From Desulfobacterales bacterium (GTDB taxonomy: Bacteria; Desulfobacterota; Desulfobacteria; Desulfobacterales; JAHEIW01), in NCBI GenBank assembly GCA_050122795.1, contig JASFIG010000003.1, positions 1 through 40,096 of the forward strand: DNA of 40,096 nt, written 5' to 3'. Positions 2,314-15,730 of this stretch are shown here, in pieces. A program made the translations under genes and the position numbers. Every line of letters starts with the position of its first letter. The stretch's first letter is position 1. The notes beneath the pieces are model-generated. The model did not search any database, was not told where the DNA came from, and saw nothing but the letters and a program-made list of their open reading frames with translations.

Positions 2314-2808
2314 ATGATCTATCGCAAAACGATAAAAGAACTTATCATTCTGGTGGGTGTTTCGGTAATACTGGCGCTGGCGGTTAACCACCTGTCGCCC
2401 AGAGGTATTGCCCTGGTGGGACAGTGGGAAACGGCAAAAGGCGTTATGACAGCCGACGCCATGGATGATGATAAATATCGCATTGCAGAAATCGACCGGG
2501 TGACCGATGCCGCAAAAATATTTTACGATGATGATACCCTTTTTGTGGACGCACGCTCGACTGAGGATTATGAAAGCGGCCACATCCCGGGAGCCGTATC
2601 ATTGCCGGTGGGCCAATTTGATGAACGGATTGAAGTGTTCATGAAACAGGTCCCGCTGGATCAGCCCATCGTTACCTATTGCTCGGGCCGAACATGCGAA
2701 GACAGCCATCAACTGGCCCGGTTGCTCATGGAGGCCGGGTTCAGTGAGGTGCGGATTTTTATTGACGGTTTTCCAGGCTGGCAGGCGGAGGGATATCCGA
2801 TTGATTAA
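2314..2808 (+). CDS. Membrane-anchored rhodanese-like domain protein (CxxxxC loop)
   Basis: N-terminal hydrophobic helix, FVDAR, GHIPGA, IVTYCSGRTCEDS, GFPGW. Start moved to ATG 2314 because GGAG lies at 2301-2304. Confidence 0.85.
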   Translation: MIYRKTIKELIILVGVSVILALAVNHLSPRGIALVGQWETAKGVMTADAMDDDKYRIAEIDRVTDAAKIFYDDDTLFVDARSTEDYESGHIPGAVSLPVGQFDERIEVFMKQVPLDQPIVTYCSGRTCEDSHQLARLLMEAGFSEVRIFIDGFPGWQAEGYPID

Positions 2809-3295
2809 CTTGCGACAGGCCATTATCAATAATAGCTGGATCGAACTGGTGGCCCGCTGGATTCTTGGATTGACATTCATATACGCCAGCTTCCACAAAA
2901 TCCTGGCACCGGGGGAGTTTGCCAGAATTGTTTACGGTTATGACCTGTTCCCACATGTTTTCATCAATCTGATCGCCATCATTATTCCGTTTATGGAGCT
3001 GGTTGCCGGATTAGCCCTGATCATTGGGATTTATCCGCGCTCAGCGGCCATTATCATTAATATAATGCTGCTGGCCTTTGTGGCAGCCTTAACGATCAAC
3101 ATCATTCGCGGCCGCGAATTTGATTGCGGCTGTTTTTCTGTTGGTCAGAGCGGATATACCGGCTCATCCGAAGTGACCGTGTTGCGCGACATTCTCTATT
3201 TTCTGTGTGGGATGCTGGTGATATTGTTTGAAGGCAGTCGCAGAGGCTGCCTTGGCCGCCGCTGTTCTTCGAATTCGTCCAATCCTCTATTATAG
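2801..3295 (+). CDS. MauE/DoxX family redox-associated membrane protein
   Basis: About four hydrophobic segments, P..ELVAGLALIIG and DCGCF motifs. In-frame TTG at 2801 overlaps the upstream stop; start is uncertain. Confidence 0.8.
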   Translation: MINLRQAIINNSWIELVARWILGLTFIYASFHKILAPGEFARIVYGYDLFPHVFINLIAIIIPFMELVAGLALIIGIYPRSAAIIINIMLLAFVAALTINIIRGREFDCGCFSVGQSGYTGSSEVTVLRDILYFLCGMLVILFEGSRRGCLGRRCSSNSSNPLL

Positions 3296-3308
3296 TTGGG
3301 AAACATAG

Positions 3309-3515
3309 ATGGCAGACCTGATTTGTTACTGTTTTGAATACACCGCAGAAGACATCCGGCAGGATTGGCTTGAACACGGGCGCTCGACGATTGTTGAAAA
3401 AATCGCAGCGCAAAAGAAAATGGGAAACTGTGAGTGCACCACCAAAAATATCAGCAGCAGGTGATGCTTATCTGACGTCCGCCAGGTGGTGGATCAGATA
3501 AAAAATTCTTGCTAA
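3309..3515 (+). CDS. Small BFD-like (2Fe-2S)-binding selenoprotein, 68 aa, Sec at residue 52; missing from the ORF track
   Basis: Translation with TGA 3462-3464 read through: MADLICYCFEYTAEDIRQDWLEHGRSTIVEKIAAQKKMGNCECTTKNISSR-U-CLSDVRQVVDQIKNSC*. Pattern ICYCF...CxC..KN.S.R(C/U)C matches the CopZ-associated/BFD-like 2Fe-2S domain. Strong SECIS-like hairpin and a downstream terminator. Confidence 0.85.
3468..3501 (+). promoter_or_regulatory. Bacterial SECIS-like hairpin
   Basis: TTATCTGA-cg-TCCGCC-aggt-GGTGGA-TCAGATAA: 8-bp lower stem, 2-nt bulge, 6-bp upper stem, AGGU loop starting 19 nt after the UGA. Confidence 0.75.
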
Positions 3516-3541
3516 ATTCGACAGCTTCGAATTTCTCAGAT

Positions 3542-3583
3542 AGCAGGCAAGGGAAGTGCTTGATCTCCTTTGCCTGTTTTTTT
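3542..3583 (+). terminator. Rho-independent terminator after the small selenoprotein gene
   Basis: AGCAGGCAAGGGA pairs with TCCTTTGCCTGTT (two G-U pairs), followed by a T run. Confidence 0.7.
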
Positions 3584-3584
3584 G

Positions 3585-3631
3585 TTGACAAAAAATATAC
3601 AGTCCCTCATATTCAATAAATCAATTGAATA
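3585..3631 (+). promoter_or_regulatory. Sigma70-like promoter with overlapping ArsR-type operator palindrome
   Basis: TTGACA 3585-3590, 17 nt, CATATT 3608-3613; inverted repeat TATTCAAT-N6-ATTGAATA at 3610-3631 just upstream of the ArsR-rhodanese gene. Confidence 0.65.
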
Positions 3632-3647
3632 CTATAAAGGTGTCAAA

Positions 3648-4325
3648 ATGAAGAATCCAAATCGCGCATTTAAAGATTCCATCTATGAGCAATTTGCTCG
3701 CATCGGCAAGGCGGTTTCCAGCCCCAGGCGTTTGGAACTCCTTGACCTCCTTTGCCAGGGACCTCGAACAGTGGAAGTGTTGGCCAACGAGTCCGGTTTG
3801 ACCATCGCTAATGCCTCCCAGCATCTTCAGGTTTTGCGAGCTGCCCGGCTGGTGGAGGCCGACAAAGATGGCCTGTATGTCATTTATCGGCTTGCCGATC
3901 AGCAAGTTTGCGAGTTTTTCCGGTCTATGCGGTTGCTGGCTGAGAGCCGCCTGGCCGAAGTGGAACAAATCAAAAGTCGTTTCCTGGATGGCAGAGAAGG
4001 AATGATGCCGGTAGACCGTAAAAAGCTTCTAAAACTTGTGCGCGAAGATGCAGTGACCGTTTTGGATGTGCGCCCGTCGGTAGAATACAATGCCGGGCAT
4101 ATTGCCGGCGCTCTATCTATTCCGCTCAAAGAGTTGCAGCAGCGTTTGTCGGATTTACCGCGCCATCAGGAAATCGTGGCCTATTGCCGCGGACCGTATT
4201 GTGTTCTTTCGGTTATGGCAGTGGAAATTCTTCGTTCGCGTGGATTCAAGGCTGTTCGACTTGAAGAAAGTATTCAGGATTTCCGCGCCCTGGGGTTTCC
4301 GATCATTGGAAACGAAAAGGTCTAA
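3648..4325 (+). CDS. ArsR/SmtB-family regulator fused to a rhodanese domain
   Basis: KAVSSPRRLELLDLL, ANASQHLQVLR (winged HTH); VLDVRP, GHIAGA, VAYCRGPYC (rhodanese). Start set at ATG 3648, downstream of the promoter. Confidence 0.9.
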   Translation: MKNPNRAFKDSIYEQFARIGKAVSSPRRLELLDLLCQGPRTVEVLANESGLTIANASQHLQVLRAARLVEADKDGLYVIYRLADQQVCEFFRSMRLLAESRLAEVEQIKSRFLDGREGMMPVDRKKLLKLVREDAVTVLDVRPSVEYNAGHIAGALSIPLKELQQRLSDLPRHQEIVAYCRGPYCVLSVMAVEILRSRGFKAVRLEESIQDFRALGFPIIGNEKV

Positions 4326-4413
4326 GTTCATTTTGCATAGCGAACAAAACACAGCGGGTGAAAAAATAAACCTCTAAACAGATGATTCAATAGGGCAAAC
4401 GGAAAGCCGGGCG

Positions 4414-6150
4414 ATGAGCCGTTTGAAAAAAAATTTGTTGGTGCTGGCAGCTGTATTGCTGACCGTTGGTTATCTCTGGCAGGTCAATCGAGAGGTTGCT
4501 CCCCAAACAGCCACCTGGCAGGATGTGCTGGCGGAAGCCAGTCAAGGCGGTTATCAGTTGATAACCACCGATGATTTAGCCAGCAAGTATAAGGTAAAAC
4601 CGGATTCTATCCTTCTGGTCGATACGCGCCAGGAGTGGGAATACCGCACCGGCCATATAAAAAAAGCCGTAAATTTTCCGATGGAGCCGACCTGGCTGTC
4701 ACGCTGGCGCAACAAAGGTGCCCTCGAAAAATTACTGGGCTCGGACAAAAATCGTTTCATTGTATTTTACTGAGCAGGGCTGGCGTGAGCCCGTAGCGAC
4801 TCGGCGGCCCGGGTGGCCGTAAAGCTTGGTTATCAATATATCTTTCGTGACCCCATGGGCTATCCGGAATGGCATGCCCGGGGGTTGCCGGTTGACAGCT
4901 CCGCGGCCGGTCTTTCTGAAACATCGCTGACCCCCCAACAGTCAAAACCGTTACACGGCTGGGCAATGATCTGGACGCTTTTAGGAATCTTTGCCGGCGG
5001 AATCGCCCTGAACCTGACGCCCTGCATCTACCCATTAATTCCGATTACGGTTTCCTATTTCGGCAGCCAGCGCGCTGGAAGCCAGCGAACGCTCTTCATC
5101 CATGGCGCTTGCTATATCGGAGGGCTGGCAATCACCAACTCTGTGCTTGGCGTGGTAGCAGCGCTGACCGGCGGAATGTTTGGCAGTTTGCTGCAACATC
5201 CGATCGTGCTCGCTGCGGTGGCGGCAGTCCTGGTTATTTTTGCCACCAGTCTCTTTGGCCTCTGGGAAATCCGTCTTCCCTATGCGTTGTCGCAGGCGGC
5301 TTCAAAGACCTATACCGGTTATTTAGGCAGTCTTTTCATGGGACTGACATTGGGCGTGGTTGCTTCTGCGTGTATGGGTCCATTTATCTTAGGCCTGTTA
5401 ACCTGGGTGGCGACGATTGGAAACCTGTGGATCGCATTTTTAATCTTTTTTACGTTGAGCCTGGGTCTTGGCCTCCCCCTCTTTTTGCTGGCGCTGTTTT
5501 CCGGACAGCTGAGCAAACTTCCTCGTTCCGGTGAATGGATGCTGTGGGTTAAAAAGCTGCTCGGCTGGATTTTAGTGGGCATGGGCGTTTATTTTATTCA
5601 GCCGCTATTGCCTGAAACCGCGAGAACTTTCTTGCTGGCCAGCGTGGCTCTGGCAGCGGCATTGCACCTGGGGTGGATAAATCTCAGCCGCGCCGAGTTT
5701 CGTGGATTCGAGTGGATGCGAATCGCGGCTGCAACCGTGGGACTCATCATCGCTACGCTTCTAATCGGGTCATGGGTGCTTCGCGGTCCCGGTGTGGCCT
5801 GGCTATCCTACTCAGAAACATTGCTGGTGGAAGCCCGGCGATTAAAAAAACCGGTGGTGCTTGACTTTTATGCCGACTGGTGCGCCCCCTGCCGTGCACT
5901 GGATAGCGTCACTTTTCATGATCCTGAAATCGTCAAACAGGCAAAAAAAGATTTTGTCATGATCAAGATTGATCTCACCCGCAGAGGCAATCCACTGCAT
6001 GAAAACCTTTTACGCCAATACCGTGTGAAAGGGGTTCCCACCGTCGTATTCCTGGACCGTCAGGGAAAGGAACGAAATGATTTACGTCTGGTAGATTTTT
6101 TACCTGCCGATCAATTTCTTGCACGCATGGCGGCGATTAAAAGCAACTAG
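4414..6150 (+). CDS. Rhodanese / DsbD-transmembrane / thioredoxin fusion selenoprotein with two Sec (U120, U125), 578 aa
   Basis: ORFs 4414-4773 and 4813-6150 are in the same frame. Read-through gives IVFY-U-AGLA-U-ARSDSAARVAVKLGY, the rhodanese CxxxxC loop. DsbD-like TM domain (NLTPCIYP, ASACMGP) and C-terminal DFYADWCAPC thioredoxin. Confidence 0.85.
4804..4820 (+). promoter_or_regulatory. SECIS-like hairpin downstream of the two UGAs
   Basis: GCGGCC-cgggt-GGCCGT; loop starts 21 nt after the second UGA and 36 nt after the first. Confidence 0.5.
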
Positions 6151-6236
6151 CGGCTATTACCGCTGTATCAAAGTAACTGAGATTCCGGAAACGACGGACA
6201 ACGTACAACTGACGACAAACCCCAATGGAGGCAATT

Positions 6237-6509
6237 ATGTTGAAGGTTAGATTTTTTATGAACCTGCCCAACGGCAGGCCGCGAAAGCACTTTAAGAAAA
6301 TGATGCCCAGGTTGGGCGCAAAATTTGATATCGAGATAGAATCGATCGAAAAACCAAAAGACGAATATATGACCGACGAATATTTTGAGCTTGATCTACC
6401 GGTGGCTCCGGCAGTGATGGTGGGCGATGAAATAATCGTTGAAGGATCCGATATTCGTAGGGGAAAATTGGAACGAGCAATCAGCCGTCATCTGGAATCT
6501 TTGACATAG
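6237..6509 (+). CDS. Small thioredoxin/glutaredoxin-fold protein with no Cys or Sec (possible de-selenised homolog)
   Basis: GGAGG RBS before ATG 6237; cis-Pro-type PVAPAVMVGDEIIVEG motif; NLPNGRPR at the position of the redox motif. Confidence 0.7.
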   Translation: MLKVRFFMNLPNGRPRKHFKKMMPRLGAKFDIEIESIEKPKDEYMTDEYFELDLPVAPAVMVGDEIIVEGSDIRRGKLERAISRHLESLT

Positions 6510-7023: not shown

Positions 7024-7349
7024 TTGGGTGGCAGGGTTTTGACAAAATTCTTAGCCTGATTTAGCCAGGATTTGAGTTGGTCTTCGCTTTTAAAGGCGCC
7101 CTCTTCTATCATCACCCAGCCCTTCATAGGTTTGCCGGTGATATCAAACGGCCGGGTATGCGCTTTTTTCAGCGCTTCGCTGGATGCCTTTTCCCCTAAT
7201 CGTAAGATAAGATAATCTTTGTATACCCCGCAGACCATATTCCCGCTTAGCAAATGACAGACGCCGCCGAACATTTTTTTGGCATCCGTATTTTTCCAGC
7301 GGCTGACAATCTTTGCGATGCGGGCATCTATCTTTTCATTGTAGGGCAT
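7020..7349 (-). CDS. TfoX/Sxy N-terminal domain protein
   Basis: KKMFGG...GNMVCGV...RPFDITGKPMKGWV; start MPYNE with AAGGA upstream. Confidence 0.85.
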   Translation of the reverse strand: MPYNEKIDARIAKIVSRWKNTDAKKMFGGVCHLLSGNMVCGVYKDYLILRLGEKASSEALKKAHTRPFDITGKPMKGWVMIEEGAFKSEDQLKSWLNQAKNFVKTLPPK

Positions 7350-7365
7350 GGGTCTTTCCTTTCGT

Positions 7366-7791
7366 CTAATCCACGGTTGGTGCCATTTGCATGCCCGGTG
7401 CGTCTGTTGGGCGCTCCTGAAAACCAAATTTTTTATAAAAAGGACTTTTCCCTCGGGCGGCAAACAACCAGATAACCCGAATTCCCTTGGAGCGGCAATG
7501 CTCGATCAATTTAGCGAGCAGGGCGCTGCCGATGCCCTGGCCCTGGCAGTTGGGATTGACAATCAGATCACAGATCAGGGCATACAAAATGCCGTCGGAA
7601 ATGATGCGCCCAAAGCCGACCAGACGGTCATTCTCGTAAGCCGACATCACATACCAGCTGTCGGATATGGCCTGATAAAGTTCCCGCGGACTGGCTTGAT
7701 AGGATATGTTCCAGCCGGTGGTTTCAAACAGCTTGCCGTAATCGCTGGCCGGAGGCGATTGCGCATAATAGGCAATTGTAGACTTGCTCAT
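7366..7791 (-). CDS. GNAT family N-acetyltransferase
   Basis: LVGFGR, ICDLIVNPNCQGQGIGSAL (acetyl-CoA loop), FYKKFGF; start uncertain (7791 or 7839). Confidence 0.9.
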   Translation of the reverse strand: MSKSTIAYYAQSPPASDYGKLFETTGWNISYQASPRELYQAISDSWYVMSAYENDRLVGFGRIISDGILYALICDLIVNPNCQGQGIGSALLAKLIEHCRSKGIRVIWLFAARGKSPFYKKFGFQERPTDAPGMQMAPTVD

Positions 7792-8049
7792 GATGTTAGG
7801 CCTTTTTATAATTTCGTATCTCGGAACGTTTTTTGACAACCACGACTAACGGCATGTTGGCAGATACCATATTAGACAAATGAATCATTTTCAATAGCAT
7901 TGATATGGCCGGAATACATTCCGTGTCGCGGCAAACGCAAGGCAGGTAAAAAAATCAAATGATGTTCTTGGAAGAAGACAAACGTCCGTCACTCAAAATC
8001 TGGCAAAAAGGTTTTAATCCCTGGCAATAGGACCGGTCGAGCCAGATCT

Positions 8050-8577
8050 TTAGCTGTCTTCGCTTTTCGGTTTTTTGTCGAAAAGATATTCATCCAATTT
8101 TTGCAATTGGTCTTCTTCCGCATCGCTGAAGCTGGCGCCCACATGGATCTCATCTCCTGTATCCCGCATGTGTTTGGCATTGCAGTCGAAGTGGAGCGCA
8201 TCCGTCTCACCGGGGACCTGGATCTCAAGACCAAAATCCGGCAGCTTACCGACCGAAGAAAAGCGGACGTCTGAACTTTTCGGATATGTAATCAAGGCGC
8301 CCCCCAGCGATAGGTCCAAAACGACCCCCGGCACCGCCTTTTTGGTTTGGCCTTCAGTAAAAGTGGTTTCTGTCGGTACTGTAATTTTTTTACGTTCAAA
8401 CTGGCGCCGCTCGGCACCATAATCAACATCGCTGAGAAACCCTTCCCGGGTTAAAAAGTCCATGATGATTTTGTGAAGCAATGAGGCCACAGAGCGCTGC
8501 TCCTTGTTTGATGCCCGCTGCAGCGCATCGCGCACTTTGCTGTTCATTCGTAAGGAAAAAATCTTATCTTTTTTCAT
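8050..8577 (-). CDS. Ribbon-helix-helix + PilZ domain fusion protein (putative c-di-GMP-responsive regulator)
   Basis: N-terminal IFSLRMNSKVRDALQRASNKEQRSVASLLHKII (RHH pattern); ERRQFER (RxxxR) and DLSLGG (DxSxxG) PilZ motifs; GGAGG RBS before ATG 8577. Confidence 0.8.
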   Translation of the reverse strand: MKKDKIFSLRMNSKVRDALQRASNKEQRSVASLLHKIIMDFLTREGFLSDVDYGAERRQFERKKITVPTETTFTEGQTKKAVPGVVLDLSLGGALITYPKSSDVRFSSVGKLPDFGLEIQVPGETDALHFDCNAKHMRDTGDEIHVGASFSDAEEDQLQKLDEYLFDKKPKSEDS

Positions 8578-8618
8578 TGCGGGATACCTCCACACAAAAA
8601 TAGCCGAATCACCGAAAA

Positions 8619-8768
8619 TCTGGCAACCCGGCTTGCTAAACTGTGGCAATCGTTTATGGGTCGATTCATCAGAGGATCTATTCCTTTTTGACTCATCAAC
8701 GAATTAACGTTGAGCTTTAGACCCGTGGTTTTCGGCCCCCACCTTCCACAGGATTTGGCGTTCACAGA
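8619..8768 (-). ncRNA. Variant c-di-GMP-I (GEMM-I)-like riboswitch
   Basis: Minus strand reads UCUG...GCCAAAUCCUGU-GGAA-GGUGGGGGCCGAAAACCACGGGUCUAAAG...UUUAGCAAGCCGGGUUGCCAGA. It has a GNRA loop, a P3 base AACC.CGG/CCG.GGUU and the 3' GGGUUGCC; it lies in the 5' UTR of a PilZ gene. Confidence 0.6.
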
Positions 8769-8790
8769 AAAATATACTGACTTCGGCGCT

Positions 8791-8820
8791 AGCATAGCAT
8801 AAAAAGTAATACATTGTCAA
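8791..8820 (-). promoter_or_regulatory. Putative sigma70 promoter for the riboswitch/RHH-PilZ transcript
   Basis: TTGACA-N18-TATGCT on the minus strand, about 20 nt upstream of the riboswitch. Confidence 0.5.
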
Positions 8821-9029
8821 TACAACTTGTTCAATTTCAATTCCTGATGTCCAACTGAAAAATCAAAAATTCTTAGGTCGTTTCATATGAACGATGCCTA
8901 TTACGCTCCGAATTTTCATCGCAAAATAGGACTGGTTGACAATTCAAATAGGCAGCTTACATTATCCTCAACTTAGTTAATATTTTATGAAAGAGCGAAC
9001 AGCAAACGATCAGAAACGGAGAGTATGAA

Positions 9030-9707
9030 ATGGCGTTTGAAACCAAAGAGCAGGTTCTGGAAAGTATTTTGAGCCGCGAAAAACCCAGCTGCCCGCATTG
9101 CGGAGAGGAAATGAACCTCTGGGAAGTTCCGCCGGTGAACATGGGTGACGGCCTGGGCTGGGGAACCCCTTATCTGTATATCTGCTTTAATGATCATTGC
9201 AACTGCTATGCGCAAGGCTGGGATCACGTCAAAGAAAATTATGCGCATAATGCATCCTATCGATGCATGAACTATCCGGGGACCGAAACATATGAAATTA
9301 TGCCGGTCTTTAGCAGTATGGGCGGTCGGGGACAGGTTGTAGACGATCAGGTGCTGGCCGAACAGGAAGCCTTGAAGGAGGCCACCAAAAGGGGCTTTTC
9401 AGTTCTTGCCGACTGTTACGTCAGCAAAGACGGGCCCCAGATTCTCAAAATACTGCTAGACACCACAGAGCCGATGCGTGTTCGCATTAAAGCTGCGGAA
9501 ATGATAGGAGACACTGGTGAACTGGAGGCCATCGAGCCTATCCGCAACGTCAATTTTGGCAATAATATCCTGCAAGAAAAGGTTGATGTCGCCATTTCCA
9601 ATATACACAAACGATTTTATACACGGGAGTGCCCTTTTTGCGCTGAAATTATCAAAAAAAGGGCCAAGGTTTGTAAGCACTGTCAAAAGGAAGTCGCCGG
9701 CCTCTAA
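9030..9707 (+). CDS. Zinc-ribbon domain protein with a HEAT-like segment, function unknown
   Basis: N-terminal CPHC plus further Cys, RIKAAEMIGDTG helical repeat, C-terminal CPFCAE..KVCKHC; GGAG RBS. Confidence 0.75.
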   Translation: MAFETKEQVLESILSREKPSCPHCGEEMNLWEVPPVNMGDGLGWGTPYLYICFNDHCNCYAQGWDHVKENYAHNASYRCMNYPGTETYEIMPVFSSMGGRGQVVDDQVLAEQEALKEATKRGFSVLADCYVSKDGPQILKILLDTTEPMRVRIKAAEMIGDTGELEAIEPIRNVNFGNNILQEKVDVAISNIHKRFYTRECPFCAEIIKKRAKVCKHCQKEVAGL

Positions 9708-10119: not shown

Positions 10120-10500
10120 ATGAAGAAACTTGACCGCCGAAAATTTCCCCGAATTAAAGTGTGCAACCCCGTTGCCTACGATAGTATGGACAAGGATGGT
10201 GTTCTGGTTGATCAGAATATGGGAATCGCCCTGGACATCAGCCAAAATGGCATCCTTTTGGAAACGGCCCAGATGATCCAGCAAAAAAATATCTATCTGG
10301 TATTTGTGGATATGGAAGAAAATATGACCAGAATCATCGGAAGGGTTGTGTTTTCCGTCAAGAACAAGGATGGAAATTTCAAAAGCGGTATCAACTTTCA
10401 GGGCGACTCCGATGAAAACATCGCGTTTGCGACCAAATTAATCGAAGCCTATCGTGAATTTGAATCAGAGCCCATTCTGATCAACGGCGCCAGGGCATAA
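10120..10500 (+). CDS. Stand-alone PilZ domain protein
   Basis: DRRKFPR (RxxxR) and DISQNG (DxSxxG) motifs. Confidence 0.85.
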   Translation: MKKLDRRKFPRIKVCNPVAYDSMDKDGVLVDQNMGIALDISQNGILLETAQMIQQKNIYLVFVDMEENMTRIIGRVVFSVKNKDGNFKSGINFQGDSDENIAFATKLIEAYREFESEPILINGARA

Positions 10501-14545: not shown

Positions 14546-15730
14546 TTACTTGTTCGGTGAGTCCGAAGAACAGTCGCAGCTCGGGCAGCAATCAGACACC
14601 ACCGACAGCGACTCGGACAGCGTTTTGTCAGGCTCAGATGTGGCTTTTTCCTGCGCCCCTGCAGGTTTGAAGCGTGTCCTGATGGCATGCCAGACAGGCT
14701 TGATGGACATCGCCAGAATCGCAAGCGCACCGATCACCCCGGCCCAGCGCGGTATAATTTCAGATGCCTGACCCACCACCGCCTGGGCTGAGATGCCTAA
14801 AGATGCATACACCTGATCGACGATCAAGCCGAATAAAACGGCGCAAACCGCAATGGATGTCAGGTAAATGGCGGTGGCCCGCTTACCCAGCACACCGGTC
14901 AAGACCGTTAAAGAAGCGATATTGGTCGCCGGCCCGGCTAAAAGAAACACCAGGGCAGCACCCGGGCTGACCCCCTTGAGGATCAGGGCCGCCGCAATGG
15001 GAGTCGAGGCTGTTGCACAGATGTACAACGGAATGCCCACCGCCAGCATGATCAGCATGGCGGGCAGTCCGGCACCCAGGTACTCGCTGAACATATCCGG
15101 CGGGATCAGCACCGTAATCAACCCGGCCAGTATCATTCCGATCATAAACCAGCCGGCCAGGTCATCCCAGAGATCATTGACGGCAAAACGCATGCCGGCG
15201 GCAAGCTTTTCCCCGAAAGTGTGATGGTGCCGATGCTCTTCAGGCGAACAGTTTTCCCCGTCGCAACAACCATCCACCGGGCAGGTGAGATCCGGGGTGA
15301 TGCGCGTCGTTTGGTTGTTTGATCCAAAAAGGTTTTCGGTAATGCCGGCAACCGCCGCGGTGATAAAGGCCACCACCGGACGCGCCACGGTCATGATGGG
15401 ATCCAGCAAGGCATAGGTGATCGAAATGGAGTCCACACCGGATTCGGGAGTTGAGATCAAAAAAGCGGTGGTGGCACCATTGCTGGCGCCCTGTTTGCGC
15501 AGCGACACGGCTGCGGGCAGCACGCCGCACGATCACAACGGGATGGGGATGCCGAAAAATGCGGCTTTTAAAACGGATTTAAAGCGTCCCTGCCCCAGGT
15601 GCCGTGTAATCGAACTTGGATTTAAAAATACCCGTAACAATCCAGCCACCAGCAATCCGAACAAAATGTAAATCGATGCGTCAACCAACAAATCCCACGT
15701 CGCCAGCAATATTTCGATGATAAAGTTCAA
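14546..15730 (-). CDS. DUF318/ArsP (SO_0444-like) metal-efflux permease, selenoprotein with Sec at residue 66, 394 aa
   Basis: ORFs 15533-15730 and 14546-15523 are in frame. Read-through gives GIPIPL-U-SCGVLP versus the family motif PLCSCGV. Also TPESGVDSI, PLYICATASTP and LLAGPATN motifs. Confidence 0.85.
15498..15515 (-). promoter_or_regulatory. SECIS-like hairpin
   Basis: Minus strand CGCAGC-cgtgtc-GCTGCG; loop starts 23 nt after the UGA at 15535-15533. Confidence 0.5.

Follow-up and report, generated by a model that had tools for sequence, protein, structure and literature searches.

The DNA analysed here, called the window below, is a stretch of 40,096 nt (contig JASFIG010000003.1 of assembly GCA_050122795.1) from a Desulfobacterales-like wetland bacterium that uses selenocysteine (Sec, U in motifs). 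The assembly (G000) is a metagenome-assembled genome (MAG) of 529 contigs and is 84.8% complete. At 2314-6509 of the window six genes follow one another on the plus strand, with the domains assigned in an earlier interpretation made from the letters alone (the sequence-only reading): a rhodanese, a MauE/DoxX-family membrane protein, a small Cys-rich selenoprotein, an ArsR-rhodanese fusion, a rhodanese-DsbD-thioredoxin fusion (tsoB) and a thioredoxin-fold protein (tsoC). The open reading frames on the opposite strand of this region are short and overlap the six genes. Judged by its signals and gene content, the set falls into two adjacent transcription units, unit 1 at 2314-3583 and unit 2 at 3585-6509, of which the second is a TsoA-less form of the published Tso operon and consists of the ArsR-rhodanese regulator gene, tsoB and tsoC. 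The idea of one six-gene system was thus not upheld.

The division into two units is based on a terminator-like hairpin with a U-run (3542-3583, +; fold z = -3.5), which follows the small selenoprotein gene, and on a separate promoter-like site behind it. A similar GC hairpin with a T-run is present in two related loci (L035 and L036). The promoter-like site, TTGACA-17-CATATT (3585-3613, +), scored 10/12 and was the top site of the region, and it is overlapped by the palindrome ATTCAAT-N6-ATTGAAT (3611-3630, +), a candidate ArsR operator and the sole exact palindrome in the window. With three mismatches allowed, the palindrome search gave 7 matches versus 5.1 expected, and only the exact palindrome was counted, because it is conserved in front of the ArsR-rhodanese gene; this search showed no further operator ahead of the first unit or ahead of tsoB. 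The gene that follows (3648-4325, +, with a true ATG at 3648) encodes an ArsR/SmtB-type helix-turn-helix domain (HTH_5) fused to a Rhodanese domain with the loop CRGPYC. Since the promoter-like site and the palindrome are kept upstream of this gene in 12 of 13 loci, other families included, its product is a candidate autoregulator, and the self-regulation proposed earlier is plausible.

The second gene of unit 2, tsoB (4414-6150, +), encodes a 578-aa protein with an N-terminal anchor, a rhodanese domain, a DsbD transmembrane domain (DsbD_TM, 138 bits) and a thioredoxin domain, and the Pfam domains bear out the architecture of the TsoB family. The protein scores 978.4 bits with the TsoB model NF045694 versus a cut-off of 805, its residues 6-575 covering positions 2-571 of the 572 in the profile. 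The residues AGLA are bracketed by two in-frame UGA codons (4771-4773 and 4786-4788, +), giving FY-U-AGLA-U-ARS with the putative Sec residues U120 and U125, which make up the UxxxxU loop of that family. The rhodanese loop ends with the second Sec and is six residues long, as in sulfurtransferase rhodaneses. As had been noticed earlier, the three rhodanese domains of the region share this loop: they align as (C/U)x4(C/U), with both loop positions invariant. The membrane cysteines C204 and C320 and the pair C490-APC493 of the thioredoxin domain are invariant among nine aligned sequences, which fits the DsbD-like electron path of the sequence-only reading.

Unit 1 begins with a rhodanese gene (2314-2808, +; PF00581, 65 bits) whose product has an N-terminal hydrophobic anchor, from which we infer putative export, and the loop CSGRTC. 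It adjoins the MauE/DoxX gene (about 2801-3295, +) in 8 related loci. The start of the latter is uncertain (TTG at 2801 or 2810); its product carries a CGC motif, scores 91.3 bits with PF07291 versus a gathering cut-off of 27, and matches PF07681 with 35 bits. The third gene (3309-3515, +) encodes a 68-aa Cys-rich protein with U52-C53, where the in-frame UGA (3462-3464, +) directly precedes the Cys codon. It scores 20.2 bits with Fer2_BFD (cut-off 26), 48.6 with NF047645 'CopZ_Nterm_CC' (cut-off 100) and 26.3 with NF045877 'Csac_0668 family' (cut-off 190). Because all three scores lie under their cut-offs while the Cys pattern C-x-C ... C-x-C ... (U/C)-C is shared with CopZ N-terminal 2Fe-2S proteins, we call the protein CopZ-N/BFD-like and not a member. 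The CopZ N-terminal models have about 140-160 positions, whereas the small protein matches only their C-terminal 50-60 residues. A sequence search of the PDB gave no meaningful match for it. The small selenoprotein gene stands beside the rhodanese-MauE pair in 4 of 8 loci and occurs in many genomes without tsoB nearby. In a relative without that gene (G007, locus L035), a remnant that reads CLPGVRPVVDEIK, with its upstream part missing, lies between the mauE and arsR-rhodanese genes and suggests a decayed copy.

Probable selenocysteine codons and candidate SECIS hairpins

The sequence-only reading had placed three in-frame UGAs (two in tsoB, one in the small-protein gene) at Cys-equivalent positions, and alignment bears this out. 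The tsoB gene was followed by a read-through search of 61 related genomes, by codon-level reading of 14 fetched related loci and by a scan of genome contigs for TsoB that kept 80 loci, 34 of them rhodanese-DsbD fusions. The read-through search gave a further 17 matches that extend to the loop, from 16 genomes and at 58-86% identity, every one with exactly two in-frame TGAs; one partial match, in G034, has three. At the codon level, TGA stands at tsoB codons 120 and 125 in all 14 fetched loci, and both TGAs are retained in all 34 fusion loci of the contig scan, L071 and L072 (loop U..U) among them. Public full-length TsoB homologs number three: P0062 and P0072 have Cys at both positions (CTGQTC and CAGPDC), and P0116 has G..R. 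The earlier remark that standard gene callers break these genes up also proved right, the window's tsoB gene call and more than 100 close homologs being forms of about 445 aa that start after the second UGA, with 74-77% coverage.

The partial match in G034 belongs to a tsoB-like gene with an internal deletion (L044, G034:C63, about 4917-5399, -), in which hardly anything separates the rhodanese part (residues 1-133, with the three in-frame TGAs) from a C-terminal thioredoxin piece; it is probably a decayed tsoB copy. In the Syntrophobacterales-like loci L071 (at about 5073) and L072 (at about 8097), a second rhodanese paralog with the Cys loop YCGFVKCGRSHN lies downstream of tsoB-tsoC. Another contig, L076, carries tandem tsoB-tsoC pairs (2653-4700 and 7035-9100) with identical loop regions.

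For the small protein, a word-index protein search returned 2 matches only, and an exhaustive search returned 820, from which 30 full-length homologs were picked among 150 listed and aligned. The U52 column holds C in 20 of them, forming a CC motif, W in 8 and R in the other 2. Of six short gene calls, five break off immediately before U52, and the in-frame TGA is retained in all 26 genomes with a full-length match. The motif is S-R-U-C in the window and G-x-U-C in the orthologs.

The Sec machinery, whose presence had been named as a check, is largely there. The genome encodes selA (618 bits), selB (366 bits) and selD (366 bits), all over their cut-offs, and selD itself has one in-frame TGA. 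The tRNA-Sec was not found in G000, either with Rfam or with a whole-genome ARAGORN run that gave 26 tRNAs; two Rfam tRNA-Sec matches at cut-off level are tRNA-Ser according to ARAGORN. This absence says little, because only 26 tRNAs were assembled in an incomplete MAG of many contigs, and tRNA-Sec was found (75.2 bits) in 4 of 5 better-assembled relatives. Elsewhere TGA acts as a stop: the pirin gene upstream of the cluster (1340-2203, +; Pfam Pirin and Pirin_C) and its homologs end at a true TGA.

We then considered RNA structures that could act as selenocysteine insertion sequences (SECIS). In the bacterial SECIS model (16-37 nt), a G stands early in the loop. Behind the tsoB UGAs lies a SECIS-like hairpin (4804-4820, +) with a 6-bp stem (4804-4809/4815-4820) and the loop CGGGU (4810-4814), which begins 21 nt after the second UGA and 36 nt after the first. 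Among 47 tsoB sequences, taken from the first UGA to +75, the stem pairs in 99.3% of 282 cells; six cells show compensatory changes (G-C to A-U or C-G to U-A), every one synonymous and in a third codon position, the covariation score was reached by none of 500 shuffles, and slid partners pair in only 22-77% of cells. A longer hairpin, proposed by RNAalifold from 14 sequences, paired in 90.4% of cells on the 47 sequences, two of its pairs being broken in 15 cells each, and the 6-bp form was preferred because the longer fold pairs worse on that set. One such hairpin could serve both UGAs, which lie 15 nt apart. The small-protein gene has a comparable hairpin (3478-3493, +; 6-bp stem 3478-3483/3488-3493, loop AGGU 3484-3487) that extends to 3468-3501 in the window (fold -17.8 kcal/mol, z = -2.84); among 24 sequences it pairs in 94.4% of 144 cells, with 3 compensatory cells. 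These counts support SECIS function but do not prove it, because related sequences can exceed shuffles without structure. Rfam, run over the entire window with E values up to 1, gave nothing at the UGAs, its matches elsewhere being a sub-threshold c-di-GMP-I match and a chance microRNA match.

The Sec machinery, the Cys homologs, the conserved in-frame TGA and the covarying hairpins together make it very probable that all three UGAs encode Sec. That they are ordinary stops, with a rhodanese fragment (119 aa), a DsbD (445 aa) and a peptide (51 aa) as products, or that they are read as Trp, is hardly credible. Gene callers do yield exactly these fragments, some public gene calls have W at the positions and tRNA-Sec is missing from this assembly, but the TGAs and their five-codon spacer are kept across orthologs that are only 58-86% identical, homologs have Cys in the same columns, the Sec machinery is present, the hairpins covary, TGA ends the neighbouring pirin gene, and the W calls are better read as translation under another code. 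Public metagenome calls with W occur at the TsoC as well as the small-protein Sec positions (P0126-P0155 and others, P0123, P0246-P0253); such calls are probably TGA translated under another code, which yields full-length 'Trp' versions of the selenoproteins. In sum, the relatives kept the UGAs, and none of the findings that the sequence-only reading had named as fatal to itself (a genome without Sec machinery, homologs that end at the UGA positions or lack an aligned Cys, a gene neighbourhood without conservation) was made.

TsoC and the relation to the Tso operon

The last gene, tsoC (6225/6237-6509, +; 90-94 aa), has the motif N[LE]PxGxxU. It has no Pfam match and scores 137.4 bits with NF045708 ('NEPxGxxU motif selenoprotein TsoC') versus a cut-off of 45. 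Its predicted structure (mean predicted local distance difference test, pLDDT, 86.7) has thioredoxins as top Foldseek matches, with template modelling (TM) scores of 0.55-0.70; because the model matches thioredoxins best, the earlier label of a thioredoxin fold is supported. The arsenic chaperone ArsD (3kgk, 3mwh) is also matched, at a TM score of about 0.6, ranked below many plain thioredoxins. TsoC lacks a signal sequence and has a single Sec where thioredoxin has its second Cys, and it may be a cytoplasmic partner or carrier. When TsoB residues 135-578 were modelled together with TsoC, the prediction returned no answer (score 0.00), which speaks neither for nor against binding.

In the window the Sec/Cys codon of tsoC is CGA (6282-6284, +), so that the motif reads N-L-P-N-G-R-P-R. 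The codon is TGA in all 10 related loci and in 33 of 34 copies overall, the window alone having CGA, and among 35 full-length public homologs the aligned column has C in 15, W in 20 and R in none. Judged by these sequences, TsoC is normally a selenoprotein, which adds a fourth Sec site that the sequence-only reading had left unremarked. Contigs of other wetland runs (X3, X4 and the RNA run X22) were aligned to the window, and T at 6282, which restores TGA, was read at 44.2 of 58.6 depth in X3, where contigs break at 6282, at 6.74 of 6.74 in X4 and at 2.2 of 2.2 in X22. Since the other runs read T, the Arg codon is taken as a strain-level or minority variant and TGA as the main allele. A short hairpin with a GGU loop (6301-6320, +) lies intact 3' of the Sec position; it is a candidate SECIS and the RNAalifold consensus of 34 copies, and as a lone fold it is not significant (z = -0.23).

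Arg and Gly recur at Sec positions: they stand in P0116 (G and R), in the small-protein homologs P0245 and P0257 (R) and, as CGA, in the window's tsoC. Codons for both residues can lie one base from TGA; the public homologs were seen as protein only. In X3 and X22 contigs the tsoB-tsoC spacer (6129-6237) is replaced by 39 other letters, a strain variant. Some contigs from RNA libraries are identical to 3300-3524 and 5665-5974, and the RNA contigs cover only parts of the region. They are weak evidence of expression, because DNA can be present in such libraries, and the uncovered parts were not taken as silent, since these RNA data are partial contigs only.

The cluster had been called cryptic, a description that did not hold: TsoB and TsoC are members of described families with curated NCBIfam models, and the operon type is in print. 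A 2026 review (PMC13188914) lists TsoA, TsoB (UxxxxU, 2 Sec), TsoC, TsoX and TsoY, describes Tso as a 'three selenoprotein operon', citing Haft & Tolstoy 2025 (mSystems), and gives in a table a 'GxUC' form 1 of a small 2Fe-2S protein, citing Zhang & Gladyshev 2008. The G-x-U-C of the small protein's orthologs agrees with that form, and the S-R-U-C of the window differs from it; neither '2Fe-2S' nor 'CopZ' was found in the main text of Zhang & Gladyshev 2008. Literature searches found no experiment on any Tso protein.

Models of the operon's proteins exist for TsoA (NF045695), TsoB (NF045694), TsoC (NF045708) and the regulator TsoR (NF045707). Like the Tso operon, the window has TsoB and TsoC over the curated cut-offs, the UxxxxU loop, the N.PxGxxU motif (with Arg in place of its U in this assembly) and the tsoB-tsoC adjacency known from distant loci. 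The earlier reading had suggested comparing neighbourhoods, and here the result was divided: tsoC neighbours tsoB in 10 of the 14 related loci and in 30 of the 34 scanned ones, whereas the rhodanese-MauE pair was seen only in the window's family (8 loci) and not in TsoB loci outside it. The ArsR-rhodanese gene lies upstream of tsoB in 9 of 14 related and 3 of 34 scanned loci.

The window differs from the Tso operon in four respects. TsoA was not detected, whereas in the distant locus L052 tsoA immediately precedes tsoB. The regulator carries an extra rhodanese domain fused to its ArsR part and remains under the TsoR cut-off. The TsoC codon is CGA at the Sec position, and a rhodanese-MauE-(Fe-S selenoprotein) unit lies upstream. 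TsoA (NF045695, LULAxC) was found in 0 of 24 genomes of the window's family, in 1 of 61 relatives (G043, near its tsoB) and in 4 of 5 distant TsoB genomes, the last showing that the search works. A six-frame search of the genome for L-U-L-A-x-C gave 5 chance-like matches, none in a TsoA context. In L052 the gene order is thioredoxin reductase, a small ORF, tsoA, tsoB, tsoC; the reductase gene (2994-4064; thioredoxin-disulfide reductase, TIGR01292, 357 bits) hints, from this one locus, at a cytoplasmic electron source. The selenoprotein families are already described; the layout without TsoA, the fused ArsR-rhodanese with its candidate operator, the upstream rhodanese-MauE unit and the Sec/Arg polymorphism may make up a new particular architecture, when judged against the review's description.

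Around the cluster, an FMN-reductase-like gene and then the pirin gene lie on the 5' side, and DUF2867, TfoX_N and GNAT genes lie on the other strand on the 3' side. Seven related loci (L033-L039) likewise have a pirin gene ahead of the rhodanese gene. Farther away lies a c-di-GMP-I riboswitch-like match (8619-8769, -; 33.3 bits versus a gathering score of 35), one stem of which is interrupted by 70 inserted nt. It stands upstream of an ORF on the minus strand (8050-8649) that encodes Arc-like and PilZ domains, and another PilZ gene is found at 10120-10500. A gene for an ArsP_1 'predicted permease' lies at 14546-15523 (-), 8 kb from the cluster, and no link to the cluster is inferred.

Possible function of the two units

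In E. coli DsbD, electrons pass from cytoplasmic thioredoxin to a membrane Cys pair, then to a C-terminal periplasmic thioredoxin-like domain and finally to the N-terminal periplasmic domain. TsoB likewise has two membrane cysteines and a C-terminal thioredoxin-like domain with CxxC, a likeness drawn from sequence; its N-terminus is a two-Sec rhodanese, whereas that of DsbD is an immunoglobulin-like domain. The DsbD model NF001419 matches TsoB with 266 bits over residues 158-575 only, below the cut-off of 330, and the N-terminal DsbD domain is absent. Because the membrane Cys pair and the CxxC are invariant, the protein has an N-terminal anchor and its rhodanese stands at the position of the DsbD N-terminal domain, we read TsoB as a conduit that would keep the rhodanese loop reduced. 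By homology to DsbD, TsoB would take up reducing equivalents in the cytoplasm, from thioredoxin or thioredoxin reductase or possibly from TsoC, and pass them across the membrane. The path would lead through C204/C320 to the periplasmic thioredoxin domain (CAPC), which would then reduce the rhodanese domain, so that the reduced U-x4-U diselenol would be the working end.

Another assignment, in which TsoB is a housekeeping DsbD paralog for repair of oxidised Cys or Sec or for cytochrome maturation, with the rhodanese as a docking adaptor and unrelated neighbours, is in our judgement distinctly improbable. The match to the DsbD model would suit it, as would the 46 of 80 kept loci that match only from about residue 117 on (plain DsbD-like proteins without the rhodanese) and a second DsbD-like gene in the same genome at 29% identity. 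Against this, the DsbD score lies under its cut-off, the retention of two Sec residues by all orthologs speaks for a demanding catalytic site and against an adaptor, and the tight tsoC pairing and dedicated regulator argue for a specialised, inducible role.

The most likely substrate of the conduit would be sulfane sulfur (polysulfide, persulfide or elemental sulfur) or its selenium analogues, which we favour because the region brings together three rhodanese domains whose loops share the two-chalcogen pattern. The ArsR-rhodanese would repress its own promoter and be released from the palindrome when its CRGPYC loop is modified, and its rhodanese could sense the same chemistry in the cytoplasm. 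In E. coli, the ArsR-type regulator YgaV goes with the membrane rhodanese YgaP, and PspE and Wolinella Sud are periplasmic rhodaneses. Like these, the locus ties an ArsR-family regulator to a rhodanese and would place rhodaneses acting on sulfane sulfur outside the cytoplasm. Unlike YgaV/YgaP, regulator and rhodanese are one polypeptide here, and unlike PspE and Sud the putatively exported rhodanese has two Sec residues and is fused to its own electron conduit. Taken as a whole, the explanation that we consider best, and hold with moderate confidence, is thus a locus of two units in which TsoB would be a DsbD-type conduit reducing a periplasmic U-x4-U rhodanese for sulfane-sulfur chemistry.

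Several observations weigh against this explanation. As described above, tRNA-Sec is missing from the assembly and Rfam gave nothing at the UGAs; the tsoB hairpin has only 6 bp, and the folds of the window itself there do not beat shuffled sequences (z = -0.35 and -0.25). No TsoA match came from G000, which is 84.8% complete, and the regulator scores 43.9 bits with the TsoR model NF045707, whose cut-off is 115. In this assembly TsoC has Arg, neither Sec nor Cys, at its key position, and is therefore not an obligatory redox partner in this strain. Because of the terminator-like hairpin, the absence of unit 1 from TsoB loci outside the family and the frequent location of the small selenoprotein gene away from tsoB, the link between units 1 and 2 may be only positional. 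Finally, an ArsR/SmtB-type regulator, a CopZ-like protein and ArsD among the fold matches speak for metals and not for sulfur.

Because of these last signals, the main rival keeps the same proteins and the DsbD-type path and takes as substrate a soft metal or metalloid (Hg, As, Cu, Sb or Te). The diselenol loop and the Sec of TsoC would then bind or reduce the metal, with the ArsR-type protein serving as its sensor and the CopZ-like Fe-S selenoprotein as a metallochaperone. NCBIfam names the usual Tso regulator an 'ArsR/SmtB-type metalloregulator', and the window's regulator passes the metalloregulator model NF033788 (69 bits, cut-off 55). The nearest models of the small selenoprotein are CopZ N-terminal families, and its longer homolog P0313 has a C-terminal hydrophobic stretch with a CC pair. 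The fold of TsoC matches ArsD, and an ArsP-type permease is encoded in the window. However, the ArsD matches rank under many plain thioredoxins, the ArsP gene is 8 kb off on the other strand, and neither unit contains a metal transporter or reductase gene. The regulator, moreover, has a rhodanese domain, generally a fold for sulfur or selenium transfer, and the recurring element of the region is the rhodanese domain, present three times. We therefore regard a metal substrate as unlikely, while giving it more weight than any other rival.

A bolder version of the sulfane-sulfur explanation is that, in the Desulfobacterales family of the window, rewiring of the Tso core has produced a module independent of TsoA. 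The C-x4-C loop of the one-component regulator would be a Cys copy of the effector's U-x4-U loop, so that sensor and effector would react with the same sulfane-sulfur or selenium species on both sides of the membrane, and the TGA/CGA polymorphism of tsoC would mark a partner that is being shed. We offer this as a speculation that is rather unlikely to hold in full.

The locus is a case in which real Sec recoding could be detected from raw sequence alone; since the families were already modelled, no new selenoproteins are added. For comparison it presents a DsbD-type conduit that ends in a two-Sec rhodanese loop, conserved in every ortholog seen, and the single short hairpin that possibly serves two UGAs 15 nt apart is a point of value in itself. 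The family gains a variant without TsoA, with a fused ArsR-rhodanese and a defined candidate operator, and with a natural Sec/Arg polymorphism in the partner protein. The operator, the loop peptides and the domain boundaries would give handles for a first biochemical study of Tso function.

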